The position numbers and the translations under genes were made by a program. A stretch of 64,000 bases of DNA from a virus. This document shows, one piece after another, positions 20,768-36,138 of this stretch. Under the pieces are notes generated by a model, which made no database searches, was not told where the DNA came from, and saw only the letters and a list, made by a program, of their open reading frames with translations. The stretch spans positions 64,001 through 128,000 of the IMG/VR virus record IMGVR_UViG_3300040758_000214, one strand, 5' to 3'. How positions within the stretch are numbered: the stretch's first letter is position 1; every line of letters begins with the position of its first letter.

Positions 20768-23700
20768 TTATTTTTGTATTCCAATTACTGTAAGATAATT
20801 ATGTAAAAGTTTTACAGTTTCTGGACATCCATCTATGACTTTTGTTTCTTTATGATCAGAATCAATCATTTGTTTAATCCATTGGTTCTTCTTATCAATG
20901 CAATCAGACTTTGTAGTTAAGATCTCTCTTAAATTTTCGGTTGCATCTTGCGCTATTAAGCAGGCGAGTTCCATTTCGCCCGCGCGTTGGCCACCAGGAG
21001 GCTTTAAACCCTTATTTAAAATTCCTTTTCGTTTTGTATTTCCACCTCCAATTGGTTGTAGAGTCTTTTTCATATACAGACCAATTCCTCTTGCAGTCAT
21101 TTTGCTTTCAGCAATATGAAGCATACGAAAAAAGTACATCCAACCACATGCAATCATATTCTCAGTAAAACAATCAAATTCAGGGAGATAAACTTTTTGC
21201 TCATATTTACTTCCAGTGAATTCCATTGCAATTTTAAGCATTTCTTTAGTACATGATTCAAATGGGGGTTGAATTATTGTTAACTCTTCAATAAATTCTT
21301 TAGTTACAATTAAGGGGACTCTTTCTATAAATTGACTAGAATACCACTTTCCTTTTGTATTATCTATCATGGAAATAAATGTAATTAAATAACTCTTTAT
21401 ATCATCTTGAGATTTATCAGAATCTATCATTTGAATTAATTGCTTCTTTAAATTTTCTAAGGCTAATCCTAAATGTAATTCAAATATTTGTCCGATATTC
21501 ATTCTAGATGGCACACCTAGAGCATTTATACAAATATCAACATGTCTTCCATCTTCTAATCTTGGCATTTTATCATGTGGAACAATTCTTGAAATTACTC
21601 CTTTATTTCCATGACGATTTCCTATTTTATCTCCTACTGCAATACTTCTTGTATATACTCCATACATTTCTACATACATTCCATTAATTTTCTCATTTTT
21701 ACTTTTATATTTTCCGGTATGAGAAAATTTATCTAAATCATGATCTCTTATAAATTGTAAAGCTTCATCCTTTGGTAATGAATCATAAATAGGTTTTTGT
21801 AATTCTTTTTCATATTCAATTTGACTTTGAATTTTCTTTTCAACCCAATCATTAAATTCTGGTATTTCTTTATTCCATTCATTTGCATAAATATTAACTT
21901 CATTTACACCAACGACTTGTTTCTTAATTGTTAATGGAATAGCTTCTTCAAAGATTGATGAAAAGTCCATTGGTCCACTTGGTATTTCTTTTAAAATTGC
22001 ATAAGGAGTTCCTGCTTTAAGAACTTCAAAATTTAAAGGAGATTTACTTTTTGTTGCTTTTGGATTTGGTAAAGGTTTATAAATCTTTTTCTTTGTTCTC
22101 CTTTCTTCTTCTAATTCATCTTTAGTTCTATAAGGAAGATTAAATAAAACTTTACTCGGTGATAATGTAAATGATAAATCTATAAAATGAATAGAAGTAA
22201 AGACGTCTTTTCCATTTATTAATCTATCAGATATTAAAATTCCATCTTCAAAATTATATCCATCATATGATGTAACTGCAGTTAATAAATTTTTACCAAT
22301 ATTTATTTTACCATTTTTACAAAAACTAGATTCAATTAAAATATCTCCGGCTTTAAATTTATCTCCAACTTTAAAATAAATTGAATCAATTAAATCTAAA
22401 TTTTCAACATATATTTTTCTATAAAAAGTATCAAAAATATCTACGGTTTTATCATCATATACTACAATCATATGATTAGAATCTAAAAATATTACTTCTC
22501 CATTTTGTTTAGCTCTTCTTACAAATTGAGTTTGATCTGTATATAATCCTTCACATCCACTTTGAATCATTGGAATATCAAAATCTGTAAGACAAATTGA
22601 TTGCCTCATTTGAGAAGATGCCATTTGTAATCTTGTTTGGTCATCATGTTCTAAAAATGGAACTAATGATACAGGAATTGAAATAGGTTGTAATTCTAAA
22701 TATTCATCTGTAAATTTTAAATTTGAGTCAAGAATAGTATTTGGAATTAAATTTTGTAATACTCCACAATTTTCTCTATCTGGAGTATCTACAGGACATA
22801 CTCTACCAAACATAGAAGGGGTAATATCTCTTAAATGTTTAGGTACATTTTCTCTATCAAATCCTCCCGGTCCAACTAAACTTGTTCTTGATAATTTTGT
22901 TAATTCATCAATAGGATTAATTGAAAAGTCAAATTGGACTATATCAGACACATTACAATCTGATAATATCTGAGTTGAATTAATATTAAATTTAGGAGAT
23001 TTGGCAGTTCTATTTGACATACAAAAATCAAATATCGTTTTAGAAACCTTAGCTAAAACGATATATTCAAAACATCTAATTCTTTTATTAATATAATTTG
23101 TATCATCTATTTTTTCAGATTGTATTACATCAATCAATTCTTCTAAAATAGATTGAGTTCTAAAGAATTTAGAAGACATAATATCACACTTTAATATAAT
23201 ATCTAAAGCATATATCATATCTTGACCTTTTTGTGTTGGATCATATTTAGAACTAAATTTTCCTAGTTCTTTAATAAAATCATCTTGTGAATAATCTTCT
23301 GATGTATCATAATATCCTTTTAAATCATAAACTAATTTTTCAATCAATGTGTTTGGTGATTCATATTCCATATCTTTTAAACCAAATTTTTGATCTAAAT
23401 AATCTAATCCATAATATGATAATAATAGAAGAGAAAGAGGAACTATTTTATTTAAAAAACTCACTCTAATAAAAGGTTCCTCTTTAAATTCAATCACTGT
23501 AAGAGTTGCACAATTAGTTCTAATCTTAATTGTTTTTCCCCTTGTTACAACAGGAATATCAAACAATTGAAATAATGGAATCTTTCTCTTTCCATTAATA
23601 TAAAAGTAATTCCCATCTATTAATTTTGGAATAGACATTGATAAATTTATTTCTGCAGTAAGTTTTTTAAATTTAATAACAATATTCTTTTTTAATGTCC

Positions 23701-23890
23701 TATCCAATTCTCCTTCCATTGAAAATCTATGATCCCTTATCCCAAAATCAACAATTTCAAAACCAAGTTCTTCAGCTGGAACTAATATTTGTCTAATCTT
23801 ATTTTCTAAATCCTGATATTCATCTTTTCTAATTGTAAATATATTTTTGTTTAAATTGTGCAATTTGTAAAAAGGATTTATTAAGTCCAT
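20768..23890 (-). CDS. rpoB: DNA-directed RNA polymerase beta subunit (phage, unsplit)
   Basis: GRVCPVDTPDRENCG, PFLEHDD..R.QM, GYNFEDG, GDKIGNRHGNKG, GVPSRMNIGQ, GGQRAGEME. Confidence 0.96.
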   Translation of the reverse strand: MDLINPFYKLHNLNKNIFTIRKDEYQDLENKIRQILVPAEELGFEIVDFGIRDHRFSMEGELDRTLKKNIVIKFKKLTAEINLSMSIPKLIDGNYFYINGKRKIPLFQLFDIPVVTRGKTIKIRTNCATLTVIEFKEEPFIRVSFLNKIVPLSLLLLSYYGLDYLDQKFGLKDMEYESPNTLIEKLVYDLKGYYDTSEDYSQDDFIKELGKFSSKYDPTQKGQDMIYALDIILKCDIMSSKFFRTQSILEELIDVIQSEKIDDTNYINKRIRCFEYIVLAKVSKTIFDFCMSNRTAKSPKFNINSTQILSDCNVSDIVQFDFSINPIDELTKLSRTSLVGPGGFDRENVPKHLRDITPSMFGRVCPVDTPDRENCGVLQNLIPNTILDSNLKFTDEYLELQPISIPVSLVPFLEHDDQTRLQMASSQMRQSICLTDFDIPMIQSGCEGLYTDQTQFVRRAKQNGEVIFLDSNHMIVVYDDKTVDIFDTFYRKIYVENLDLIDSIYFKVGDKFKAGDILIESSFCKNGKINIGKNLLTAVTSYDGYNFEDGILISDRLINGKDVFTSIHFIDLSFTLSPSKVLFNLPYRTKDELEEERRTKKKIYKPLPNPKATKSKSPLNFEVLKAGTPYAILKEIPSGPMDFSSIFEEAIPLTIKKQVVGVNEVNIYANEWNKEIPEFNDWVEKKIQSQIEYEKELQKPIYDSLPKDEALQFIRDHDLDKFSHTGKYKSKNEKINGMYVEMYGVYTRSIAVGDKIGNRHGNKGVISRIVPHDKMPRLEDGRHVDICINALGVPSRMNIGQIFELHLGLALENLKKQLIQMIDSDKSQDDIKSYLITFISMIDNTKGKWYSSQFIERVPLIVTKEFIEELTIIQPPFESCTKEMLKIAMEFTGSKYEQKVYLPEFDCFTENMIACGWMYFFRMLHIAESKMTARGIGLYMKKTLQPIGGGNTKRKGILNKGLKPPGGQRAGEMELACLIAQDATENLREILTTKSDCIDKKNQWIKQMIDSDHKETKVIDGCPETVKLLHNYLTVIGIQK

Positions 23891-24280: not shown

Positions 24281-26980
24281 TTAAAACTCCCCTAATAATA
24301 TTTTGTCAAAAATTCCCTCATAGTTTCCAGAATTTAAAAGTCCCTTAATTATTGCAGATTTGGGATTCGAAAAAGCAATAGCAAGTAACCATGACTCATT
24401 TGTTGGAGCACTTTGGATTGAAAGGAACTTCGGTGTAACTTTATCTCTATTTTTCATTAATCTCCATTTATAATGTCCGACCCACATTAATTGCGATACA
24501 ATAGATTCAAAATGAACATGAAGTATTCCTTTGCTATTATTATAAACATCGAATAAATCAGAAACTAAATCTTCAGCAGTTTGGTCTTTTTTAAATTTAT
24601 GGAATAAATCAGACACAATTTTTAAATCACTAATTACATCTGATTGTTCCATATCAACAGATCCTTCTTTAATATTTGCTACACCTGATAAGTGGAAGGT
24701 ACGTAAGGTCAATTGTGTAGTGCACTCCCCCAAAGATTGCGCTCCAAGGATACCTATATACTTACTATCATTTAATTTATGAGTATTTCCATAACATGTT
24801 AGACAAATTTCTGGTGATGTGCAATATATTGGGCTTCTCACTTTTAACATTTGACCAACTAATTCTGAGCATTTATTTAATGTAATTAATTCTAATTTAT
24901 CATTATTTAAATAATATTTATTCACTAACATTTTTGCTTTATTTAAATTTTTAACATATACATTTAAATAATCTTTAGTTTCGCAATCCTTTAAATTTTT
25001 ATTTAATAAAAGATTAACTCCAGTGAATATTAATTTTCTTGATAAATATCCAGAAGTTCCAGTATTTAAAGCAACATCTAATAATCCTTTTCTACAACCA
25101 TAAGTTGAATTGAAGAATTCTTCTTCTGTTAATCCATCAAGTAAATTATTTTTAATTGCTTTAGGATATATTTCTCCATTAAAATTAGATACATATCCTC
25201 TGGTTAAAATCATTTGTTTTGCCTGATCCCAATTTCCACGAGCTCCTGAGTCAATTAAGTACGAATACTCAAAATTTTCTCTTAATGAATTTTCAATTTC
25301 AGGACTTGATAATTTATTAATTTGAGTCATTATATCATTAGACTCATAAATTGAATCTTTCAATTCTTGAACATTTGGAATTTCACAATGATTTAGAGAA
25401 ATAGTAGGAGCAAAAATTGTTGCATATTTGAATCCAACTTCTTTAATTTTATCTAGAGTTTGAACTGTTATATTTTCTGGCCAATTATTTTTAATACCAT
25501 TTAATATTTTTATCAGATTCTTTTTTATAACTATTTCATTTATTACCGGAAAATCTTCTGGCAAACATTCATTAAAGATTTTCATTCCTTCTGTAATTTC
25601 AATTCCTTTATATACAACTTTATTTAATAATGATGAAATTTTATTAGATGTAAGTGCATATAATCCCAATATTATATCTTGAGAAGGAACTGTAGCTAAA
25701 CTTTCATTTGCAGGACTTGTTAAATTTTTAGTAACTATTAATTTATCTAATGTTTCTTGTTTTGTCTTTTCTGTGATGGGAATATACACAGCCATCTGGT
25801 CTCCATCAAAATCTGCATTGAATCCTGAGCAAACTAATGGATGAATTTTAATAACATTATCTAATGAAGTTTTAATTTTAAATCCACAAATACTAAGTCT
25901 ATGAAGAGATGGTTGTCTATTTAACAAACATACTTCACCTTTAACAATTTCAGAGATATCATTGAATAAATCTGGTTTTTTCAATTCGATACAATTATCT
26001 ATAAAATCAATTGCATCATTTAATAATTTAAATTTACTATGTTCTATTAATCTTTTTGCTAATGGTAATTTGAATAACTCTAAAACCATAACATATGGAA
26101 GAACACATTCATCTAAATTTAATTTTGGATCAGGAATAATAACTGCTCTTCCTGAGAAATCAATTCTTTTACCTAATATATTTCCTCTTATTAATCCTTC
26201 TTTTTTACTAAGTTTTGTAACTATATGCGCATATAATTCATTTACATCTTTTTGTAATTGCCTAAAATATTGATAATAGAATTGTTTACTATGTTCTATA
26301 TCTACAATTGTATTTTGCATTGTTTCTTTTTTTGTTAAAATTTGCATATAATATCTATTTATTTCATCTACAATTTGATTATTCTTTTCAGATCCTTTTG
26401 CAGCTGGTCTTAAATCAGGTGGTAAAACTATAATATTTCTTATTAATAATGTATCAATATTATCTCTAATTAATTTCCATGCAGGAATATCATCTGCTAA
26501 TGCTATTGAAATTCCATTAACCATTTCATAAATTGCTTCAGTTCTTTCCCATATTCTACATCCTGCTTTTACATTTTCTAATTCCTTTACTACAACATAA
26601 TCATCTCCATCTTTATATAAAATACTTTTTTCATCTTTTAATAATAAGTCTATAGAATTCATTAAAGATGAGCCACCTAAAGTGGTAAGTAAATCATAAA
26701 ATACTGGATTCATAACTTTAATTGGAATTACAATTTTGGCAAATCTTCTTCTTCTTTCATAACTATTTACAATATCAACTTGACATACATTACATGCTCC
26801 ACCATCTGCTCTAGATATACCAAAGTAAGTTCCACACTGACAAGTATAGTTTCTTAATGGTCCAAAAATCTGTTCAGAAAATAAACCATTAGGATGATAA
26901 TTCTTTTTGTCCATCATTTTAATGGATGAAACTTCCTTTAAATTTTCACAGAAAGCATTGATGTTTAGAAGAGTTGGCAT
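24281..26980 (-). CDS. rpoC: DNA-directed RNA polymerase beta' subunit (phage, unsplit)
   Basis: GLFSEQIFGP, Zn ribbon, VLPPDLRP, GKRIDFSGR, LNRQPSLHR, catalytic NADFDGD, TQLTLRTFH. Confidence 0.97.
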   Translation of the reverse strand: MPTLLNINAFCENLKEVSSIKMMDKKNYHPNGLFSEQIFGPLRNYTCQCGTYFGISRADGGACNVCQVDIVNSYERRRRFAKIVIPIKVMNPVFYDLLTTLGGSSLMNSIDLLLKDEKSILYKDGDDYVVVKELENVKAGCRIWERTEAIYEMVNGISIALADDIPAWKLIRDNIDTLLIRNIIVLPPDLRPAAKGSEKNNQIVDEINRYYMQILTKKETMQNTIVDIEHSKQFYYQYFRQLQKDVNELYAHIVTKLSKKEGLIRGNILGKRIDFSGRAVIIPDPKLNLDECVLPYVMVLELFKLPLAKRLIEHSKFKLLNDAIDFIDNCIELKKPDLFNDISEIVKGEVCLLNRQPSLHRLSICGFKIKTSLDNVIKIHPLVCSGFNADFDGDQMAVYIPITEKTKQETLDKLIVTKNLTSPANESLATVPSQDIILGLYALTSNKISSLLNKVVYKGIEITEGMKIFNECLPEDFPVINEIVIKKNLIKILNGIKNNWPENITVQTLDKIKEVGFKYATIFAPTISLNHCEIPNVQELKDSIYESNDIMTQINKLSSPEIENSLRENFEYSYLIDSGARGNWDQAKQMILTRGYVSNFNGEIYPKAIKNNLLDGLTEEEFFNSTYGCRKGLLDVALNTGTSGYLSRKLIFTGVNLLLNKNLKDCETKDYLNVYVKNLNKAKMLVNKYYLNNDKLELITLNKCSELVGQMLKVRSPIYCTSPEICLTCYGNTHKLNDSKYIGILGAQSLGECTTQLTLRTFHLSGVANIKEGSVDMEQSDVISDLKIVSDLFHKFKKDQTAEDLVSDLFDVYNNSKGILHVHFESIVSQLMWVGHYKWRLMKNRDKVTPKFLSIQSAPTNESWLLAIAFSNPKSAIIKGLLNSGNYEGIFDKILLGEF

Positions 26981-27008: not shown

Positions 27009-27266
27009 TTAAAAATTTTCGATTATATATGTAGCTAATGCATTGAAGTGTTCTTTTACAATTTGTGCTGTGATTTTATGTATCTCGGGAATAATTTCTT
27101 GAACTATTTCTTTTACTTCATCTCTTGTTAAAATTTCTCCTTTTTCTTCAAGAGCTATATTTATTTTACTTTCAATTTCAGAATCTAATAATTCATAAAA
27201 TGAATTTTTTGATTCTATTAATCCTTTATTTTTTTTCATCAGAAACTCCTTTAACCTGCTTTTCAA
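27009..27266 (-). CDS. Small helical protein upstream of rpoC
   Basis: ORF; likely start MKKNK. Confidence 0.5.
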   Translation of the reverse strand: MKSRLKEFLMKKNKGLIESKNSFYELLDSEIESKINIALEEKGEILTRDEVKEIVQEIIPEIHKITAQIVKEHFNALATYIIENF

Positions 27267-27408
27267 TTAATTTTTTTGTACGAATCGAAAAAACATCTAC
27301 CATCATTCCGAAAGACTTATTCACAAACTTTTTTAAACTATCAGAAATATCATCAATTAATTCATGAGCTGTTGTTTCTAATTTACTTTTTTCTTTATTA
27401 TCAGGCAT
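27226..27408 (-). CDS. Small hypothetical protein
   Basis: 60-aa ORF with AGGAG SD. Confidence 0.5.
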   Translation of the reverse strand: MPDNKEKSKLETTAHELIDDISDSLKKFVNKSFGMMVDVFSIRTKKLIEKQVKGVSDEKK

Positions 27409-27904
27409 ATATCAATTTCTCCTTTTCTACATCATTTTCATCATAACCATTTATGTTCCAAATAAATCTTTTATTATTTTTTTGTTTTTCTTTATGAATT
27501 CTAAAACTAAAATTTTTTGGATCTGATATATTAATAAATTCAAAACAATTCCAATATGATTTATAAAAGGTATTATAATTATAAGTTAAGAATTGATGTT
27601 CTATTATTTCTAAATCAGAATCTATTTCAAATAAATTTTGTTTAAAGAATTCTTGTATACAAAATATATTGGTAACTGGATTTTTATTTGGGTGAGGATT
27701 TTTAAACATTATAGATTCCAAATATCCATTTTTTAATTTTATCTCATATTTATTAATAATGAATTTATAAGGTATTTTTATTATTTCATATTTTTTTTCA
27801 TTCTTAATTAATATTTTAGGAATAATGAAACAATTAACTTTTATATGAATGATATTGATCTTATTTTCAACACTTGCTTTAATCAATTCTATTTTGTTTA
27901 GCAT
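27401..27904 (-). CDS. Putative E2 (UBC-fold)-like protein
   Basis: KNPHPNKNPVTNIFCI = HPN motif with downstream Cys; follows an E1-like gene. Confidence 0.45.
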   Translation of the reverse strand: MLNKIELIKASVENKINIIHIKVNCFIIPKILIKNEKKYEIIKIPYKFIINKYEIKLKNGYLESIMFKNPHPNKNPVTNIFCIQEFFKQNLFEIDSDLEIIEHQFLTYNYNTFYKSYWNCFEFINISDPKNFSFRIHKEKQKNNKRFIWNINGYDENDVEKEKLIYA

Positions 27905-27918
27905 AAGTATATGTCTCC

Positions 27919-28791
27919 TTATGCCGAAATAGTTTGAGTAATAATTTTTACTAAATATTTATTCTGTCTTGCTAAAGGCATACAAACTCTATAAGTCATA
28001 TTTTTATCTATTAACATTGATAAAATCTGTTCTCTAACATCATCAACATCTTTTAATTGTGTCATTCTTATTTCTTTTATATTTTCTTTTTTTTCATCTT
28101 TTAGAGAAAATAATATTGGAAACTTTTTATTTCTTTCTATAATATCGGATACATGAAGATCTAAATCTTCTAATATTTCATCACTATCATGACTTTCAAA
28201 TATAACATTGACTCCATCATTATAATTTTTAAATTCATAAAAGTCAGATTTTGTTAAATCTAAATCAATTGAATATAATTTTTTTAAATCTACTAATTCT
28301 TTAATCATTCCACTTTCAAAATATTGAGTAGCCATTAATGCAGCCATTTCAATTTTAGATTTACTAAGTTCTACAGAATATCTTGTATTTACTAATGGCT
28401 TATATGTAATATTTTTTCTACAATCTAAAACTAAAAAATCCGAATATTGAAAATACATTTTAACATCAACTCTATTATTTCTATTATTAAAATTATCAGT
28501 GCAATCTATAATTAAATCAATATTATTCGGGATTATAGTATGATCTATAAAATTTGTTTTAGAAACAATAACTTTAATATCTTTATAATCTCTAAGTATT
28601 TTATTTCTAATTGGATAAACTTTTCCTTGCCCGATATCATTTTGATTATATAATGAATTAATCAAATTTTTCTCATTGACAATATCTGAATCATATAATA
28701 ATAATTCTTTAACACAACCAGATTTAGCTAAATGATATGAAAAGAAACTCCCCAACGATCCAACTCCAGCAATTAAAATCCTATTAAACAT
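27919..28791 (-). CDS. ThiF/E1-like adenylation-domain protein (second copy)
   Basis: IAGVGSLGS, YDSDIVNEKNL, GQGKV, IIDCTDN. Confidence 0.8.
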   Translation of the reverse strand: MFNRILIAGVGSLGSFFSYHLAKSGCVKELLLYDSDIVNEKNLINSLYNQNDIGQGKVYPIRNKILRDYKDIKVIVSKTNFIDHTIIPNNIDLIIDCTDNFNNRNNRVDVKMYFQYSDFLVLDCRKNITYKPLVNTRYSVELSKSKIEMAALMATQYFESGMIKELVDLKKLYSIDLDLTKSDFYEFKNYNDGVNVIFESHDSDEILEDLDLHVSDIIERNKKFPILFSLKDEKKENIKEIRMTQLKDVDDVREQILSMLIDKNMTYRVCMPLARQNKYLVKIITQTISA

Positions 28792-28801
28792 AATACTCCT
28801 T

Positions 28802-29035
28802 CTACTGCTTGAAATTCTCCATCCGTTCTACAATATCATTAATTTCGCCTTGTAAAAACTTAACTTCTGACAAACTAAGTCTTCCTAGTTTTAAAAATTT
28901 TCCGTCATTTGATATTCTTGTCAATTGTAATTTAGGGGCTCCACCCTTATAAGAATAAACTTCACCTTTAATATTAACATCATCTTCTAAAGGTTTAATT
29001 TCAAATAATAATTTGTCATCTTCTTGATTATACAT
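28802..29035 (-). CDS. PC4/YdbC-like ssDNA-binding protein
   Basis: VYSYKGGAPKLQLTR...KLGRLSLSEV. Confidence 0.6.
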   Translation of the reverse strand: MYNQEDDKLLFEIKPLEDDVNIKGEVYSYKGGAPKLQLTRISNDGKFLKLGRLSLSEVKFLQGEINDIVERMENFKQ

Positions 29036-29054
29036 TTATATCTCCTATGTTTAA

Positions 29055-29086
29055 TGAAAAGGGATATTTTTACATATCCCTTTTCA
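29055..29086 (-). terminator. Intrinsic terminator-like hairpin
   Basis: TGAAAAGGGATAT...ATATCCCTTTTCA. Confidence 0.65.
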
Positions 29087-29105
29087 ATTTTATTAAACAA
29101 CTTTA

Positions 29106-29567
29106 TTATTCGGAATAGATATCTATATGATCAGGCATGTATTCACTTTTGAATTGAAAATATTTTGCTGCTACTTTTATGGGATAACTCTTTGGAACAT
29201 CTATTTTTATTCCAGATTTATCATTTTTCTTTGCTGGACAAAATAATAAATTATTTTGAATGGCTTCTTGTGCAGCTCTTTCTAATTTTTCAGAATCTGA
29301 AATAATAATTTTTTCAATCCAAAATTCAACATTCCTATCAGGGATTATTTCATATGAATTTTCTCCGCTCATTAAAGCTTTCATTGCTCTTCCAAAAGCA
29401 ATATTTCTAGATTTCTTTCTAATATGATTATCTAGAATTGAACAGATAGAAATTCCCCTTGCAATTAATTTTCTATCTGCATCTTCAATTTCACATACTG
29501 TAAATGCATTATTTAGTATGTCAGTTTTTTTATATGAATATCTTATTCTTAGATTACTCACGTCCAT
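29106..29567 (-). CDS. Hypothetical phage protein (G.S.C...D....R.IA..RA family)
   Basis: ARGISICSILDNHIRKKSRNIAFGRA. Confidence 0.5.
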   Translation of the reverse strand: MDVSNLRIRYSYKKTDILNNAFTVCEIEDADRKLIARGISICSILDNHIRKKSRNIAFGRAMKALMSGENSYEIIPDRNVEFWIEKIIISDSEKLERAAQEAIQNNLLFCPAKKNDKSGIKIDVPKSYPIKVAAKYFQFKSEYMPDHIDIYSE

Positions 29568-29591
29568 ATCTATCTCCAGACTATGTTTTTT

Positions 29592-29623
29592 AGGGATGCA
29601 TTACTTTAATATAATGCATCCCT
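29592..29623 (-). terminator. Intrinsic terminator-like hairpin after Ubl gene
   Basis: AGGGATGCATTA...TAATGCATCCCT. Confidence 0.65.
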
Positions 29624-29638
29624 TCCAATTAATAAAAA

Positions 29639-30283
29639 TTACCCTTTACGGCCACTAGTTTTCAGATATTCAAGATTATCATTTTCCTGAATAACATAAT
29701 TCAATCCTACTTCTTTTCCACACGCAAGGGCACGAGGAATATTGCTACCAATATTCAGAACTTCCTTAAGAAACTCTGCAACCTGTCCAACAGTTTTTCC
29801 GATTACATTAAAATTCCCAGAGGAAGCTCCACAAGAAACATGAATAGTGGATTTAATTCTATCGGATGAAGAATTAGGATTAACAACAGTATTCTTCATT
29901 GTTATTTCCATCGTAGAAATACCACCAATTGACGGACCAGTAACTGTGGATCTTACAGGAGCACTAGCCACACCAATCTTAGAAAGAATAGCTGCAACTA
30001 ATTCATCCTTAGGTTTTTTACTCATTCCAGAAATACTAAGTTCCTGACAAATTTCACGAAGATCAGAATTGGTCAACTCTAGAAGACCTTCTTTTGTATA
30101 ACGAGGAGCTGTAGCAGAAGAAGTCTGATTGTTGGCGGTTGAACCAGCCTTGGATAAAATTGCTTCCATGATAACATCTTTACGTGCTTTACTCATTCCA
30201 GTGATACCAAGACTCTGGCAAATTTCACGAAGCTCACCATTGGTTTTTTCAACTAATTCGCCATAATTATAAGTTCTTGCCAT
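29639..30283 (-). CDS. Ubiquitin-like (beta-grasp) protein with two N-terminal Rho-N/HEH repeats, C-terminus ...SGRKG
   Basis: Two ~43-aa repeats (ELREICQSLGITGMSK / DLREICQELSISGMSK); C-terminal ~70 aa GKTVGQV...YVIQENDNLEYLKTSGRKG. Confidence 0.8.
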   Translation of the reverse strand: MARTYNYGELVEKTNGELREICQSLGITGMSKARKDVIMEAILSKAGSTANNQTSSATAPRYTKEGLLELTNSDLREICQELSISGMSKKPKDELVAAILSKIGVASAPVRSTVTGPSIGGISTMEITMKNTVVNPNSSSDRIKSTIHVSCGASSGNFNVIGKTVGQVAEFLKEVLNIGSNIPRALACGKEVGLNYVIQENDNLEYLKTSGRKG

Positions 30284-30376
30284 TTGTAATTCTCCTATTC
30301 ATTTTTTGGTTTTTACTACAATTAAAGTTATCCTTGTATAGAAAGGATTCTTAATTTAAAATTGTATAATTTGGTC

Positions 30377-31066
30377 TTACTTTTTCAATTCTCTAGACTT
30401 TGAATCTACTTTCATTGTTGTAATGTCAAAATATGCTTCTGAGTTTTTATAATTTTCCTGCAATACATTATAAAACGCACAGCACATTAGTGTTGCCGCA
30501 GCTAAATTGGTAAAATATAATTGAGGTTCACCAGCTGCAGATAATTCTTGGCAACTCATTTCATCTGGTGATTTATCATCAGGTTCATCAATTTCTGGAT
30601 GATAATCAGTCAAACTTGGCGTTAAATCTTCACCTCCTTTTCTTACATATATTTGAACATTACCATCTACATAATCATTCCCCCCGGAGATTAATGTAAT
30701 GTTGTTCAAACTTTTTGAATAATCTGATACAAGTTTTCTAGTTTTATGATTATCAACCGCTAAAAATACAGTATCACCATCTTCAATCAAAGTATCAATT
30801 ACATCTTTATTTACATAAAATGGAAATGATTTAAATTCAATATTATTAAATTTAGATTGAAGTTCAAATGATTTCACTTGTGCCTTATTTCCCATATTGG
30901 AAAAATCTTGTCTTTCAAAATTTTTGGTTTCATATTCATCACCATCAATTAAAGTCACATTTGCTTTGGTATTTGAATAATTAATAAACCTTGAAATTTT
31001 TTCTGATAAAATAGATCCAATTCCTCCTAATCCAATAATTTTAATCGTATGGCCAGAGTGGTACAC
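30377..31066 (-). CDS. E1/ThiF ubiquitin-activating-like enzyme
   Basis: GLGGIGS, IDGD, KNFERQ, NKA, AVDNHKTR, SGGN, putative catalytic MSC, QLYFTN. Confidence 0.9.
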   Translation of the reverse strand: MYHSGHTIKIIGLGGIGSILSEKISRFINYSNTKANVTLIDGDEYETKNFERQDFSNMGNKAQVKSFELQSKFNNIEFKSFPFYVNKDVIDTLIEDGDTVFLAVDNHKTRKLVSDYSKSLNNITLISGGNDYVDGNVQIYVRKGGEDLTPSLTDYHPEIDEPDDKSPDEMSCQELSAAGEPQLYFTNLAAATLMCCAFYNVLQENYKNSEAYFDITTMKVDSKSRELKK

Positions 31067-32228
31067 TTATAAGCTCCTCTGTTTCTATAATTTTACTACG
31101 ATCATCTTTTTCTTTTTTGGTTATAAATGTATCATCTTTTTTGCATTTTTTAATCATACCTAATAATTCTTTTTCATCTTTAGCAAACTTTAAATTACAT
31201 TTATAACATGGATTAAAATATTTAGATTGTTGTGATTTAATGGCAGATGATGATATAGTTTGAGGTAAATTAGGTGTATGAATAGTTTTCTTTTGATTAT
31301 ACTCATGATCATCTACACCACCATTAACTCTATTCATATACCTATAAAACCACATATCATTTTCAAGGTCATCATTTATATTTCCACCATATCCACCATC
31401 ACTATAAAAACTATATCCATTATTATGTTGTCCATATCCTCCAAAACTATAAGCTTTTCTGAAATTATATTTCTCAACATTTATTAACCATTTTGGATCA
31501 CATTCTACACTTGATAAATGTTGTGAAATTATATATCCTGTTGTAGTTTTCATTTCCTTTTGATAAACTTTTTCTTTCCCAATTACTTCATATTTTGGTC
31601 TAAACATTGACTTAAAATATTTTGTATATTCAGTTTTATAAACTCCATCAATATAATCCAATGGATCAACTTCAACTCTATAACCATTTGACGCTATGGA
31701 TGCTACAATTTTATGAGTATCAGAATCAATTTCTCCAACAGTAATATGCAAACCATCAAAATCTTCTTCATCATGAGTATCTGTTCCAGAGTGAAAGGCG
31801 CTGAATCCTGGATGACTATGAATTGAACATACTGGTTGATAATTTTTTATAGATATCTGATAATTATCTTCCACATTAACACTTGCTCCTGAAACTGATT
31901 GCTCTGGAATATGCACCTTAAATGCCTTTTTCTTTGGATTATAATAAATAATTGCTAATCCTTCTGCTCTATGCCCATGATATACTTTTTTGAAAAAGTC
32001 AAATATTTGTGCATATATAATTCCAGGAATTTTTGGAATATCCATTGATGCATAACATCCAATATCTTCTAGAAATGATATATTTTTTACTGGAACTAAA
32101 CTATCTATTAATCCCATTTTTTTCTTTAAATATACACCACCTTTAGCGATAATATAACATATATCGTCTTTTGGCATTCCTTGTTCTTTATCAAATGTAT
32201 ATACATTAAACATACTATTATTAGACAT
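31041..32228 (-). CDS. JAB/MPN (JAMM) metallo-isopeptidase
   Basis: AEG...PEQSVSGASV...SIHSHPGFSAFHSGTD..DE...GLHITVG. Confidence 0.9.
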   Translation of the reverse strand: MSNNSMFNVYTFDKEQGMPKDDICYIIAKGGVYLKKKMGLIDSLVPVKNISFLEDIGCYASMDIPKIPGIIYAQIFDFFKKVYHGHRAEGLAIIYYNPKKKAFKVHIPEQSVSGASVNVEDNYQISIKNYQPVCSIHSHPGFSAFHSGTDTHDEEDFDGLHITVGEIDSDTHKIVASIASNGYRVEVDPLDYIDGVYKTEYTKYFKSMFRPKYEVIGKEKVYQKEMKTTTGYIISQHLSSVECDPKWLINVEKYNFRKAYSFGGYGQHNNGYSFYSDGGYGGNINDDLENDMWFYRYMNRVNGGVDDHEYNQKKTIHTPNLPQTISSSAIKSQQSKYFNPCYKCNLKFAKDEKELLGMIKKCKKDDTFITKKEKDDRSKIIETEELISVPLWPYD

Positions 32229-34767
32229 TGAAAAACCTCCAGTCCTTTCTATAAATTCTTGGTAAATAATCTATGGGAATAAATCCACTTAAGAAATTTG
32301 GTAAAACATAAGTATACGTAGATGGTGCTTTGGCATTGGATTCAATAAATCTTTGTGTACATATACCAGACAACTTTTTGGATGAAATATTTTGTGTAGC
32401 ATAGGTATAAGAATCGCATAATGCTGATTGAATATCTATAGACTCTTGTTTTGTTAATACCAATTCTCTAATATTATTTTTATCAATGATTATATCTCCC
32501 GGTTGAAATTTAATATGATCAGTATTTTCAAAAATTGTAACTTTTAATTTCTTATAAACTGGATCCTCCCTATTTACAAATTTAAAATTCTTTAGATTTT
32601 CTTCTTCCATCCAAATTGCAGAATAATTAGAAGTTAGAATTAAAGGATATTTATCTGTATCAACTAATATTGCCATGACTAAATGTGTATCTTTCTTTAA
32701 GAATAATGGAATTTTATTTACAGTTACAATTTTGTCTCCAACTGAAATTCCATTTAGATTAGTTACACATTTCCTAACTTTCTCTACAGAAATTATCATA
32801 GATCTAAAATCAATGTATTCAATACTTTTTATATTACCTTTACAATCTACAGTATCAATATACATTTTAAATGTTTCTTTACAGAAATTAAATCCTGTTA
32901 TATTTCTATGAATAAACATTTCTGGTGGATTATCCCAATCAACATAAATAATATTATCTCCAATTTTAAAATCAATATTAAAACATAATCCTTTTAATTG
33001 TATAGAATTATTATCTTTTAAAATTTCAGATTTTACTATATCTAATCTTTGTTCCATTATAATCGAATCATTATTTCTAGAATTTTTAATCATTAGAATA
33101 ATATTATTATTAGTTATATATAATTTATGATCATTTGTAATTTGGCAAATACTTTCTTTCAAATCATTGATTATAATTGTATTTCCATATGAGAAAATTG
33201 AAAGATTTTCTCTTTCATTCTCAACATGAGGAGCTATTCTATTATCTATATCAGAATGCTTAATATGATATAAGTTTTCTCCTAATTTAAATTGTAAATA
33301 AAATATCCCCCTAATTATTTCTGCTTTTTCAAAAGTTATTATAGCATTTCCAAATATAATTGATGCTCTAGTTCTTGATTTACCTTTATCTACATATAAG
33401 TTTCCTTTCTTAAAATTAATATTATTTATAGTTAAATCTTCTGGATTTATTATTTCTATATTCTTTAATGATTCTAAAATATAATAATCAGTTCCAATTA
33501 AAAATTCTATTTTTCCTCTTCTATTACTTCTAATTTTCTCAATTTTCTTAAATTCTTTAACTTCAGAATTTTTATCAATACAAATTATATCTCCTATTTT
33601 ATAAATTATTCCATTCAATTCATACTCAGTTAAAATATTTTCTTTATTATATGTATTTTTTATTGCAGATAATAAAGAACTATCACTTATTTTATATTTA
33701 ACAAATTCTCCTTTTGAATTCTCTAACATTACTCCACTTATAGTACTAGAATCTATAAATGATTGTTTAGTTGCTGGATCTATTTTTATAGTCCCTAAAA
33801 ATTCATAGATATAATGTTTTTCATCATTAATTACAATTTCATCTCCAATTCCTAATGCATGTTCATCTGTGAAATAATGACTTTGACAATGTGATGTGAC
33901 AGTTTTTGGATCTAATTTAACAGAAGGAATATTACATATCATATCTATAGTATCTTTAAATAAATATGCTCCAGCATTATCAATATTACTTCTATCCCCA
34001 CCATTAAAATTTCTAGTCAAATCTTGTATTTCTGAAATGATATTAAAATTAAATGTTTTCCATTTTGTAGAAAATATAAACATAGGATCAATTGATGTAT
34101 TATATTCCCAATGTAAAAATGATGAAACTTCTGGTACATCATTATACATATTATAAACATATGTAATATCACCATTGAATTGATTAGCCCAAAATGCATT
34201 AATTAATTCTTCTACTTTTTCTCCTAATGATAGATTAGTATTTTTGGCATTATTTGGACCTAAACATACATGACCATTAGAGTCAAGATTTGTAAAATTT
34301 GCATGTAATAAATAATCATGAAATGATGACATTGGGTGTAATCTAAAAAATACTCTAAGTTCTTTAGGGCAATCATCCAAAAATGCAAGGAAGAAAACTA
34401 CATATGGAAATGATAAATTAAAATAATAAGGAGGTTTATTTTTTAGAAAGTCGGAATAACCATACTCTTTTAATCTTCCAGTTCGTCTTAAATTTTCTAT
34501 AACAGTATCGAATTGTAAATCAACACAAATATTTCTTATAGCAGGAGGTTCTTCAATAATTAAATATGTATAATTTTCAATTTGTTTGTAAAACCTACAG
34601 TTTCTAGGTAAAATATCAGATTGAATATTGTTTGAGGCATATAATCTATCATAAAAATCTTTAGTTTTAATATGTTTTACTTCTGAAAGAACATTAAATG
34701 TATCTGAATTTTCTGTTAATGGTTTTACTAAACGAACTTCATTTTGATTAATTAAAATATGTTCCAT
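32221..34767 (-). CDS. Prokaryotic E2 family D domain plus ~600-aa tail with repeated KOW/SH3-like motifs
   Basis: IEEPPAIR, SFPYVVF, ANFTNLDSNGHVCLG, FWANQFN; tail motifs IGDEI, KIGDII, KKGNLY, KIGDNI, SVGDKI, QPGDII. Confidence 0.75.
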   Translation of the reverse strand: MEHILINQNEVRLVKPLTENSDTFNVLSEVKHIKTKDFYDRLYASNNIQSDILPRNCRFYKQIENYTYLIIEEPPAIRNICVDLQFDTVIENLRRTGRLKEYGYSDFLKNKPPYYFNLSFPYVVFFLAFLDDCPKELRVFFRLHPMSSFHDYLLHANFTNLDSNGHVCLGPNNAKNTNLSLGEKVEELINAFWANQFNGDITYVYNMYNDVPEVSSFLHWEYNTSIDPMFIFSTKWKTFNFNIISEIQDLTRNFNGGDRSNIDNAGAYLFKDTIDMICNIPSVKLDPKTVTSHCQSHYFTDEHALGIGDEIVINDEKHYIYEFLGTIKIDPATKQSFIDSSTISGVMLENSKGEFVKYKISDSSLLSAIKNTYNKENILTEYELNGIIYKIGDIICIDKNSEVKEFKKIEKIRSNRRGKIEFLIGTDYYILESLKNIEIINPEDLTINNINFKKGNLYVDKGKSRTRASIIFGNAIITFEKAEIIRGIFYLQFKLGENLYHIKHSDIDNRIAPHVENERENLSIFSYGNTIIINDLKESICQITNDHKLYITNNNIILMIKNSRNNDSIIMEQRLDIVKSEILKDNNSIQLKGLCFNIDFKIGDNIIYVDWDNPPEMFIHRNITGFNFCKETFKMYIDTVDCKGNIKSIEYIDFRSMIISVEKVRKCVTNLNGISVGDKIVTVNKIPLFLKKDTHLVMAILVDTDKYPLILTSNYSAIWMEEENLKNFKFVNREDPVYKKLKVTIFENTDHIKFQPGDIIIDKNNIRELVLTKQESIDIQSALCDSYTYATQNISSKKLSGICTQRFIESNAKAPSTYTYVLPNFLSGFIPIDYLPRIYRKDWRFFNV

Positions 34768-34803: not shown

Positions 34804-35106
34804 TTATTTTTTAATATAGAATCTTTCTTTTGTTGGTGTTTCTAAATATTCAACTCTATCATATGGAATACTTCTCCATTCTTTCTTTTCTAAATCAAAA
34901 ACTCTAAGGATATTTTGTTTTACTAAATTTAATATTGCTGCTAAATCAACTTTTTTAGGTTGTTTTATTTTTGGAATCAAATCAAATTGTAAAGTACATT
35001 TCATCATCCTTATTGTTTTATCTTTTTTAATAAATCTAATTATCACTTCTGGTTGTGTTCTTATAATCTTTAAAAAATCAATTGCATTATTTATTGGTTC
35101 ATTCAT
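34804..35106 (-). CDS. WYL-like SH3 beta-barrel protein
   Basis: FIKKDKTIRMMKCTL...VFDLEKKEWRSI. Confidence 0.7.
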   Translation of the reverse strand: MNEPINNAIDFLKIIRTQPEVIIRFIKKDKTIRMMKCTLQFDLIPKIKQPKKVDLAAILNLVKQNILRVFDLEKKEWRSIPYDRVEYLETPTKERFYIKK

Positions 35107-35112
35107 ATCATA

Positions 35113-36138
35113 TTAAACTCCTCTTTTTTCTGTATGAAGTATTTCATCTTTATTATCGGACAAGTTCGTGTGGAGAACACAGGTCCAATTACATCTAAGA
35201 CAAAGTTCTTTCTTATCCCTTTTAATTAAATCTAAGAATAAAGGATTTATTTTTCCATCGTAATCCAAGAAATTTGTAACTGAAGCAGATGTAGTATGTC
35301 TTCCACCAATCCTGAGGCATAATCTACATGCTCCATCCGCGTCAATTGTGATATTTGTTAAATTCTTTTCTAATTCACAATCATATTCACTTGGTAATAT
35401 CTCAAATAATTTTGGTAATAATTTATCTGCCATATGAACATCTAATTTTTCATCTATTATTCTTTTAAATATGTCAGATAATTCTTTTGTTGGTTTGACT
35501 AAAACATTTTCATCTGTAACATTTGCAAAATCATAATATGGAGATTTAGAAATATCTATAAATGTAATATCAGATGATATTCCATTATTTGAAAGTTCTT
35601 TAACTAATGGATAAAGATATTTAACATTGTCATTATCAACTGTTATTTCTGCAACCAAATCTTTTATTTTTCCTTTTAAACTCTTAAGTCTATTAAACCC
35701 TGCAATGCATTTTTTGTATCTATCATTGTCTTTAGATATATTAGGATCAAATATTAAAGGATCTACGGAACTTGATAAACCTTTCACCTCTACTTTTTCT
35801 AAAAGATCATTTAATGATTTCTGAACTGAATTTGAATTATTTGTGATAATTGTATAATATATATCATTTGAATTACAATATGCAATTATTTGTGGTAAAT
35901 CATTTCTTAATAAGGGTTCTCCTCCATAGAAAATATGAAAGCAATCTGGGTTATGTTTTTTTAGTTTAGATAATCCCTCAAGTACTGTTTTGGTTGACAT
36001 TTCATTCTTATAAAAATGCCCAATATCAGGATATTCTCTTGGTTTATTTTCATAGTCAGATACTATTCTACAGTATGAACATTTTAAATTACAACGTCTT
36101 GTTAATAACCAATTTACTATTCTTATTTTATCTGCCAT
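35113..36138 (-). CDS. Radical SAM enzyme with C-terminal SPASM/twitch-like Cys cluster
   Basis: CNLKCSYC, YGGEPLLR, ITN; CRLC...CLRCNWTC. Confidence 0.9.
   Translation of the reverse strand: MADKIRIVNWLLTRRCNLKCSYCRIVSDYENKPREYPDIGHFYKNEMSTKTVLEGLSKLKKHNPDCFHIFYGGEPLLRNDLPQIIAYCNSNDIYYTIITNNSNSVQKSLNDLLEKVEVKGLSSSVDPLIFDPNISKDNDRYKKCIAGFNRLKSLKGKIKDLVAEITVDNDNVKYLYPLVKELSNNGISSDITFIDISKSPYYDFANVTDENVLVKPTKELSDIFKRIIDEKLDVHMADKLLPKLFEILPSEYDCELEKNLTNITIDADGACRLCLRIGGRHTTSASVTNFLDYDGKINPLFLDLIKRDKKELCLRCNWTCVLHTNLSDNKDEILHTEKRGV

Follow-up and report, generated by a model that had tools for sequence, protein, structure and literature searches.

A virus-borne gene cluster that probably encodes a two-module ubiquitin-like conjugation apparatus beside the RNA polymerase genes of a clade of large uncultured phages

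A cluster of genes on the minus strand of IMG/VR record IMGVR_UViG_3300040758_000214 bears all four parts of a ubiquitin-like (Ubl) conjugation system, together with a second E1-like/E2-like pair [positions 27401-34767 of the window, that is, of the 64,000-nucleotide (nt) stretch analyzed here, which covers positions 64,001 to 128,000 of the record]. We consider it likely that this region encodes a virus-owned Ubl conjugation apparatus made of two separable modules, and that it forms a vertically inherited part of the core of a clade of large uncultured phages. The record is a linear sequence of 143,060 bp with ~27% G+C, estimated by CheckV to be ~46% complete, in which almost all genes lie on the minus strand. 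The genes of the cluster follow one another in the order E2D, a giant E2-like protein of 848 amino acids (aa); JAB, a metallopeptidase; E1a, a minimal E1; the candidate Ubl, hereafter the tag; two small proteins of 153 and 77 aa; E1b, a second E1-fold protein; and p167, a second E2 candidate. An open reading frame (ORF) check placed all of them at the coordinates given below. Overlaps of 8 nt between the E2D stop and the JAB start, and of 26 nt between the JAB and E1a genes, give the first three genes the packing of an operon with translational coupling. The original prediction for this DNA, of an E2-JAB-E1-Ubl set and a second E1/E2 near RNA polymerase (RNAP) genes, agrees with the ORFs, motifs, family matches and recurrent gene order described here.

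The strongest single item of evidence is the C-terminus of the tag. This 214-aa protein (29639..30283, minus strand) consists of two Rho_N (HeH-type) domains, a linker and a candidate beta-grasp domain that ends in ...EYLKTSGRKG*, the terminal SGRKG having been singled out in the original prediction. Across the family the C-terminus is conserved as ...GDxLEFxKxxGxKG, with K213 and G214 invariant; the tag ends in KG in 42 of 59 relatives, in KGC in 14, and is longer by 2-7 residues in the other three, and the tag of locus L088 has 9 residues beyond KG. A protein that stops at such a glycine, or runs on for only a few residues, bears, as far as sequence can tell, the signature of a C-terminally activated and peptidase-matured Ubl. 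At default thresholds the only match of the window tag is Rho_N (3.4e-15, two stretches). At lenient E-values the C-terminal ~85 residues of its homologues (n=50) matched TGS in 38 cases, ThiS in 33 and Ub-Mut7C in 20, and this domain is probably a ThiS/TGS-like beta-grasp. The HeH/Rho_N domains, for their part, hint at a tag that recruits or locates nucleic acid.

The enzymes expected to activate and release such a tag are encoded immediately upstream of it. E1a (229 aa, GTG start; 30377..31066, minus strand) is a minimal ThiF-type E1 that matches PF00899 over profile positions 23-224 of 238 (1.5e-18, 67.3 bits, cut-off 28.1) and PRTRC_ThiF (TIGR03736) with 35.9 bits (4.7e-9), its top NCBIfam matches being ThiF and MoeB adenylyltransferases. 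GxGGxG, NFERQ, VDNHKTR and Cys172 are kept across 54 homologues, and the E1 motifs originally listed for this gene (GLGGIG, NFERQ, VDNHKTR and MSC) all lie in the 229-aa ORF. JAB (395 aa; 31041..32228, minus strand) is a PRTRC_A-like JAMM/JAB metallopeptidase with a complete zinc motif. It scores 24.4 bits against Prok-JAB (PF14464; E 2.9e-5), just under the cut-off of 25, and aligns with TIGR03735 PRTRC_A over profile positions 29-188 of 192 (7.2e-7, 28.9 bits). Its zinc site, E88 plus H137-S-H139-x7-S147-x2-D150 (IHSH-x7-S-x2-D), is kept across 51 homologues, and the JAMM motif reported earlier for the window protein, HSHPGFSAFHSGTD, is an exact HxH-x7-S-x2-D. Since the tags of 17 of the 59 relatives (and that of L088) run past the conserved KG, the JAB of this family most likely also matures the tag; the earlier proposal that a native terminal glycine makes JAB a deconjugase rather than a maturase is thus accurate for this phage alone.

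E2D (848 aa; 32221..34767, minus strand) is related to Prok-E2_D in its N-terminal ~270 aa, where Cys168 and Asn160 are the candidate catalytic residues; the motif NFTNLDSNGHVCLG, quoted in the original prediction, is present in this ORF. Twelve of the first 15 E2D homologues matched Prok-E2_D (PF14460), the best at 2.2e-7 and one above the cut-off (31.2 bits), the matches spanning profile positions 88-154 of 171 alone, which correspond to the region from the cysteine onward. Residues P54, E72, P75, R78, P121, N160, C168 and W193 are invariant in 49 E2D sequences, homologues from candidate phyla radiation (CPR) contigs included, and the stretch from N160 to C168 reads N-x7-C-L-G, which resembles an E2 active-site loop. 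The assignment of E2D as an E2 is, on these grounds, probable. No family was matched by its C-terminal ~570 aa, which contain weak internal repeats with GDxI motifs (residues 305-408 resemble 600-691 with an E-value of 0.017) and may provide built-in substrate recognition. The Atlas model of E2D is poor (predicted local distance difference test score, pLDDT, 0.56; template modeling scores all <0.3), and its faint Agenet/BAH/SH3-like rows are a lead at most. Two side observations concern the same family. One locus (L078:872-5679) harbors two tandem E2D paralogues of 787 and 822 aa, the first of which terminates in ...EEVLKGAA, recalling the tail of E1b described below. Outside the window, at genome coordinates C1:141158-141421, a short ORF (87 aa) shows weak similarity to positions 204-265 of the E2D profile (E 7.8e-4), which could be due to chance or mark it as a fragment.

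The cluster recurs well beyond this record. Sixty loci were compared, 58 of which came from an IMG/VR scan with the E2D family (phage contigs up to 277 kb) and two from exact-protein look-ups. About 54 of the 60 share the order radical-SAM, WYL_2, E2D, JAB, E1a, tag, (153 aa), (77 aa), E1b, p167, (85 aa), RpoC, RpoB, a recurrence that is far above chance. An independent scan anchored on RpoC found the six genes upstream of it in 16 of the 18 close-clade loci with enough flank, and did not find the cluster beside RpoC relatives of <~35% identity. In pairwise comparisons, divergence in E2D, E1a, JAB and the tag follows that in RpoC (Spearman coefficients of 0.70-0.87, descriptive only as the pairs are non-independent); the distances of E1a and E1b correlate with an r of 0.55. 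Mean pairwise identity is 0.64 for RpoC, 0.58 for E1a, 0.50 for the tag, 0.43 for JAB, 0.40 for E1b and 0.32 for p167, and falls to 0.31 for E2D, the fastest-evolving of these proteins. The pattern appears to be that of a vertically inherited core module with fast-evolving substrate-facing parts, and because of the strict synteny and the co-divergence with RpoC, a core phage function would fit better than a mobile anti-defence accessory. The purposes put forward in the original prediction, namely modifying RNAP or defence factors or countering host Ubl immunity, are guesses.

The distribution of the genes also separates two modules: the E2D-JAB-E1a-tag quartet (module 1) and the E1b-p167 pair (module 2). 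The quartet occurs without module 2 in a phage subgroup (L055-L059), on one contig of which (L056) it lies ~16 kb from RpoC, and on contigs of metagenome-assembled genomes (MAGs) labelled Uhrbacteria, Saccharibacteria and Falkowbacteria (CPR); another locus (L087) has E1b and p167 without the quartet. On the CPR contigs the tags are bare predicted beta-grasps of 72-85 aa or have other N-terminal regions, and their termini read GTKG, GVGG, GEKG and GDKA. In four CPR MAG loci (L065, L066, L067 and L069) the gene order of the quartet varies and E2D, at 380-1048 aa, is shorter or differently extended. Some contigs of the phage clade (L062, L063 and the one encoding protein P0163) were assigned to archaeal MAGs (Heimdallarchaeota, Thermoplasmatales and, as a contig of 255 kb, Thorarchaeota), which could reflect mis-binning or be a hint at the host. 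Among 50,697 GenBank phages, neither blastn with the cluster nor tblastn with E2D gave a match.

E1b (290 aa; 27919..28791, minus strand) matches PF00899 by sequence over residues 4-104 only (1.7e-15, 57.3 bits), and its AlphaFold2 (AF2) model (pLDDT 82.6) predicts a full E1 adenylation fold for residues 1-~185. The structure closest to this model in a VIA search is the E1 domain of Cap2 (7tsq_B; Z 19.4, root-mean-square deviation (rmsd) 2.4, 169 residues aligned, model range 1-212); the inactive E1 subunits APPBP1 (2nvu_A, Z 16.5) and SAE1 (8vy5_B, Z 16.3) are also matched. The invariant residues of the family are G9, G11, G14, D34, N42, K57, D96, C97, D99, Y138 and A290, so that GxGxxG and the Mg-binding D96 are kept. 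The Arg-Gln of NLxRQ is missing, the corresponding stretch reading NLINS in the window and NLx[NKT]S in all of 74 full-length representatives. An extra domain, beta-beta-alpha-beta-beta in the AF2 model, occupies residues ~205-290; it terminates in ...IITQTISA in the window and in ...ELIPETGAA in the family consensus. A profile of this domain retrieved only 96 proteins from 1.84 billion representatives, 74 of them the full-length ones just mentioned (~280-320 aa). It is always protein-terminal, with alanine as the last residue in 90 of the 96 and G[AGS]A as the last three residues in 79. A small residue that is invariant at an invariant protein end argues that the free carboxyl end of E1b matters. 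PDB profile and Pfam searches with the extra domain returned nothing, and an Atlas search nothing usable. The domain was also considered as a possible beta-grasp; hhalign found no similarity to the tag family and no such call is made, the beta-beta-alpha-beta-beta order of the model being only suggestive.

The gene for p167 (167 aa; 27401..27904, minus strand) lies 14 nt downstream of E1b. Its ORF contains the HPN..C motif pointed out earlier (HPNKNPVTNIFC); in 39 sequences P29, H71, N73 and C82 of this HPN-x8-C protein are invariant and P72 is nearly so. E2, UEV and RWD proteins make up most of the top 30 VIA rows and ~40 of the top 50 Foldseek rows obtained with its AF2 model (pLDDT 83.1), the best structural match being 1yrv (Z 5.8, rmsd 3.9, 105 residues aligned); BubB and the Cap2 E2 domain are also among the matches. 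The two best matches of a PDB profile search, both non-significant, are eukaryotic E2s aligned on HPN...C, and all 88 of 88 p167 relatives in the database are without a Pfam domain or a name. Because the motif and the structural matches agree, p167 is taken here as UBC-like despite middling Z scores, an E2 fold being probable, not certain. A comparison of p167 with E2D by hhalign was non-significant (E 0.33); the single alignment obtained superposes the two cysteines. The predicted E1b-p167 complex scored 0.15 against a mark of 0.32, which speaks neither way. The second E1/E2 pair of the original prediction is therefore present, and to it can be added what had gone unseen there, namely that the pair is a separable module and that E1b ends in an invariant small-residue tail.

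Taken together, the gene content, the conservation of catalytic residues, the predicted folds of E1b and p167, the synteny and the co-divergence lead us to infer a scheme for the chemistry, for the roles of the enzymes and for the choice of targets. In module 1, Gly214 of the tag, a candidate beta-grasp joined to one or two HeH/Rho_N domains of nucleic-acid-binding type, would be adenylated by E1a, and the tag would then be handed, probably via Cys172 of E1a, to Cys168 of E2D. The large, fast-evolving C-terminal region of E2D would pick the target, making E2D a kind of E2/E3 hybrid, and the tag would be ligated onto a target amine, from which JAB would strip it; in relatives with an extended tag, JAB would first free the glycine. 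Given the position of the cluster beside the RNAP genes and the HeH domains of the tag, its targets might be nucleic-acid-associated proteins of transcription or DNA metabolism, although this evidence only suggests as much. Two roles can be proposed for module 2. It may be a second branch, in which the C-terminus of E1b itself would be the activated moiety and p167 the E2, much as the C-terminus of a CD-NTase serves Cap2; alternatively, E1b may be a non-catalytic partner of E1a.

A number of observations weigh against this interpretation. The system is known from genes and predicted folds alone, and the phage clade is uncultured. The window E2D itself has no Pfam match at an E-value of 0.1, its relatives align to just 66 of the 171 Prok-E2_D positions and mostly score under the cut-off, and neither the full-length nor the N-terminal E2D family gave any match in PDB profile searches. 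The beta-grasp call for the tag comes from sub-threshold Pfam matches (best TGS 6.3e-5, ThiS 9.6e-4). The scores of JAB and E1a are far under the PRTRC trusted cut-offs (28.9 vs 101.8 and 35.9 vs 144.75, respectively), the structural matches of p167 stay below a Z of 6, and a radical-SAM gene two genes upstream of the cluster keeps a sulfur-chemistry reading alive. Finally, E1b lacks both the conserved Arg-Gln and an invariant loop cysteine, and for this reason may adenylate nothing.

This last point bears on the most serious of the other explanations, according to which E1a and E1b would form a heterodimeric E1. E1b would then be a dead scaffold for E1a, in the way that SAE1 pairs with SAE2 and APPBP1 with UBA3, p167 would be a second E2 that directs the same tag to other targets, and the tail of E1b would serve either as a pseudo-substrate for regulation or for docking. 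We regard this arrangement as possible, if on the unlikely side. The replacement of NLxRQ by NLx[NKT]S across the whole E1b family speaks for it, as do the inactive SAE1 and APPBP1, which match E1b nearly as well as Cap2 does, the correlation between E1a and E1b distances, and the finding that the 143-kb record holds no second free-standing Ubl. On the other hand, GxGxxG, D34, K57 and the Mg-binding Asp96 are invariant in E1b, as would be unusual if the subunit were dead; CPR contigs and L055-L059 have the quartet and no E1b, whereas L087 has E1b and p167 and no quartet; and the alanine that is invariant at the exact end of E1b is left unexplained.

The ...G(A/G/S)A end of the extra domain looks like a conjugation tail, and it is tempting to see in E1b a Cap2-like E1 fused to its own tail, the end of which would be activated either in trans, by another E1b or within an E1a/E1b dimer, or by E1a, and then passed to p167. 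This proposal is tentative, and we would not call it likely. If it were true, the phage would covalently attach a whole E1-fold protein to a target, and, with the HeH-bearing tag and the giant E2/E3-like enzyme, a two-branch, virus-owned cascade would be built into the transcription/replication programme of a clade of huge phages.

A different account of the whole cluster is that host Ubl machinery of the Bil or CBASS (cyclic-oligonucleotide-based antiphage signaling system) Cap2/Cap3 type was copied to strip or mis-direct immune conjugates: JAB might remove host Ubl from phage proteins or from primed cGAS, or the E1 and E2 might tag host defence proteins and thereby inactivate them. The bacterial relatives do act against phages (Bil, 10.1101/2023.09.04.556158; Cap2/Cap3, 10.1101/2022.03.31.486616), and the fast evolution of E2D and p167 (identity 0.31-0.32) is reminiscent of an arms race. 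Yet anti-defence genes are usually variable accessory genes, whereas the cluster has a fixed place in the replication/transcription region and co-diverges with RpoC at an r of up to 0.87, E1a being conserved almost as well as RpoC itself; moreover, a deconjugase would be enough for stripping and yet a full set of tag, E1 and E2 is kept. We judge a counter-defence role of this kind possible but improbable. Least probable is a sulfur-carrier pathway, in which E1a would make a thiocarboxylate on the tag that feeds a nucleic-acid or cofactor modification, perhaps with the radical-SAM enzyme, and no protein would be conjugated: the tag does resemble ThiS/MoaD-type beta-grasps, ThiF and MoeB adenylyltransferases are the best NCBIfam matches of E1a, and the radical-SAM gene is syntenic in 53 of the 60 loci, but E1a is translationally coupled with a JAB and with an E2-like protein that has invariant Asn and Cys, and is accompanied by both even in CPR contigs, E1a is without a rhodanese domain, the 143-kb record (~46% complete) contains no rhodanese, PP-loop ATPase or cysteine desulfurase, and the HeH domains of the tag would have no role in sulfur transfer.

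Conjugation by a virus-owned apparatus being the preferred reading, the cluster can be set beside the systems already described. The PRTRC cassette of plasmids and integrative and conjugative elements is likewise a mobile-element assembly of a JAB, a minimal ThiF E1, a small Ubl and an E2-like protein, and the JAB studied here aligns over nearly the whole PRTRC_A profile, as E1a matches PRTRC_ThiF. The scores are, however, far below the cut-offs, the cluster has no ParB-like gene, and it differs further in its 848-aa E2, its HeH-bearing tag and its carrier, a large phage of lytic type; judging from these profiles it appears to be a relative of PRTRC, not a member. Bil (BilABCD, with an ISG15-like protein; operon type 6d, PMC1779556), for which conjugation to protein targets has been demonstrated (10.1101/2023.09.04.556158), also consists of four separate genes in one operon, encoding a Ubl with a C-terminal Gly, an E2, a JAB and an E1. 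Bil is host-encoded and defensive, whereas the present cluster is phage-borne; in addition, type 6d E2s are marked by a conserved His after the Cys, plus a JAB-N domain with conserved Arg/Trp (PMC1779556), and no invariant His follows Cys168 of E2D. As the quartet fails the profile cut-offs of both, it is filed under neither PRTRC nor Bil.

PADLOC matched just the two E1s, to its Cap2 'E1-E2' CBASS models (2e-5 and, for E1b, 1e-11); the E2s, JAB and the tag were without a match and no CD-NTase was found, a composition that falls outside both Bil and type II CBASS. Cap2 is of interest here in that it activates the C-terminus of a protein that is not a Ubl: CdnD of E. cloacae, with the C-terminus ...TGRFA, undergoes adenylation at its final alanine (10.1101/2022.03.31.486616). 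The best structural match of E1b is the E1 of Cap2, and the E1b family ends in ...ETGAA. In type II CBASS, where the JAB is Cap3, Cap2 is an E2-E1 fusion, whereas E1 and E2 are separate genes here and no CD-NTase accompanies them; it is also E1b that bears the candidate tail, and its NLxRQ motif has lost the Arg-Gln. Bub operons (PMC11601596) offer another diverged bacterial E1/E2/Ubl set; the BubCD E1 chain 9eav_A matches E1b with a Z of 16.0 and the BubB E2-like chain 9eav_D matches p167 with a Z of 4.5. BubCD, too, lacks an E1 catalytic cysteine. Bub is reported to use oxyester intermediates and a serine protease, whereas the E2 candidates of the cluster keep invariant cysteines and its peptidase is a JAMM enzyme.

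Phage precedents are fewer. The Ubl/JAB pair of lambdoid and T1-like tail assembly (TAPI/TAPK) is the only phage case in Iyer et al. 2006, where bacterial E1/E2/JAB/Ubl operons were predicted (PMC1779556); it is a tail module without E1 or E2, whereas both enzymes are present here, in a replication/transcription region. Cultured Bacillus jumbo phages (vB_BauM_KLEB27-3 gp195/gp194, vB_BceM_WH1 and Edson) encode adjacent homologues of JAB (5e-18) and E1a (2e-29), annotated just as 'PRTRC_A domain' and 'ThiF family'; profiles detected no E2D, tag, E1b or p167 in them, and the pair does not adjoin RNAP genes. In vB_BauM_KLEB27-3 (L061, gp194-gp197), the JAB/ThiF pair is preceded by two hypothetical proteins, of 564 and 273 aa going by their ORFs; they went undetected by profiles and could be very divergent equivalents of E2 or of the tag. 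No description of a complete phage-encoded E1-E2-JAB-Ubl set was found in the literature searched, the coverage of which was incomplete. New here are the conservation of the locus beside RNAP across the clade, its division into two modules, a tag that combines HeH domains with a candidate Ubl domain, the evidence for JAB as a maturase and the tail of E1b.

The genes around and between the two modules complete the picture of the locus. RpoC, the RNAP beta' subunit (899 aa; 24281-26980, minus strand), carries Rpb1 domains 2-5, and the downstream RpoB, the beta subunit (1040 aa; 20768-23890), carries Rpb2 domains 3, 6 and 7. The cluster had been placed directly ahead of rpoC/rpoB, which is nearly right, an 85-aa ORF (27009-27266) intervening between p167 and rpoC. 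Upstream, the gene for a WYL_2 protein (Sm-like SH3 barrel, 100 aa; 34804..35106, minus strand; PF10902, 1.4e-8) is a conserved neighbour in 54 of the 60 loci and at most a candidate member of the system. The radical-SAM gene lies at 35113-36138, and further upstream are found SbcD-like, HNH and SbcC-like genes and three small ORFs, followed by radical-SAM and WYL_2.

Between the tag and E1b, the 153-aa protein (29106..29567, minus strand) belongs to no family, is present at this place in 26 of the 60 loci and is at most a candidate part of the system. Its invariant residues are N20, C25, R37, G38, S43, R60 and A61, within a core N..T.C...RG..ICS..D...RA..A, and three of its relatives weakly match Rv2632c-like proteins (E 0.009). 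The 77-aa protein (28802..29035, minus strand), also without a family, occurs in 12 of the 60 loci. The label 'PC4-like' originally given to a protein of this interval finds no support in Pfam or PDB profiles for either of the two. A hairpin of 11 bp with an 8-nt loop (GGGATGCATTA / TAATGCATCCC; 29593..29622, minus strand) stands 17 nt past the stop codon of the tag and is followed by TAAAAAACATAG and then by a GGAGATA ribosome-binding site. The terminator proposed after the tag gene does not hold up, as this hairpin is followed by an A-run, with no U-run, and went unscored in a terminator scan. A second, perfect hairpin of 13 bp between the genes of the 153-aa and 77-aa proteins (29055..29086, minus strand) is terminator-like. 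These two strong hairpins bracket the 153-aa gene and have a common GGGAT...ATCCC core; downstream of both come AAACATAG and, ahead of the next ATG, a GGAGATA ribosome-binding site. They may represent a recurring processing or termination-reinitiation signal of the phage.

In the literature searched, prokaryotic Ubl conjugation has been demonstrated experimentally only for host anti-phage systems (Bil, CBASS Cap2/Cap3 and Bub), and has been predicted for plasmid cassettes. The parts described here are unusual among them: the tag carries HeH domains of nucleic-acid-binding type, the candidate E2 is 848 aa long and may itself select what it modifies, and one E1-fold protein has a tail-like end. 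A full kit owned by a virus would shift the question from how bacteria tag phages to what phages tag, and why.

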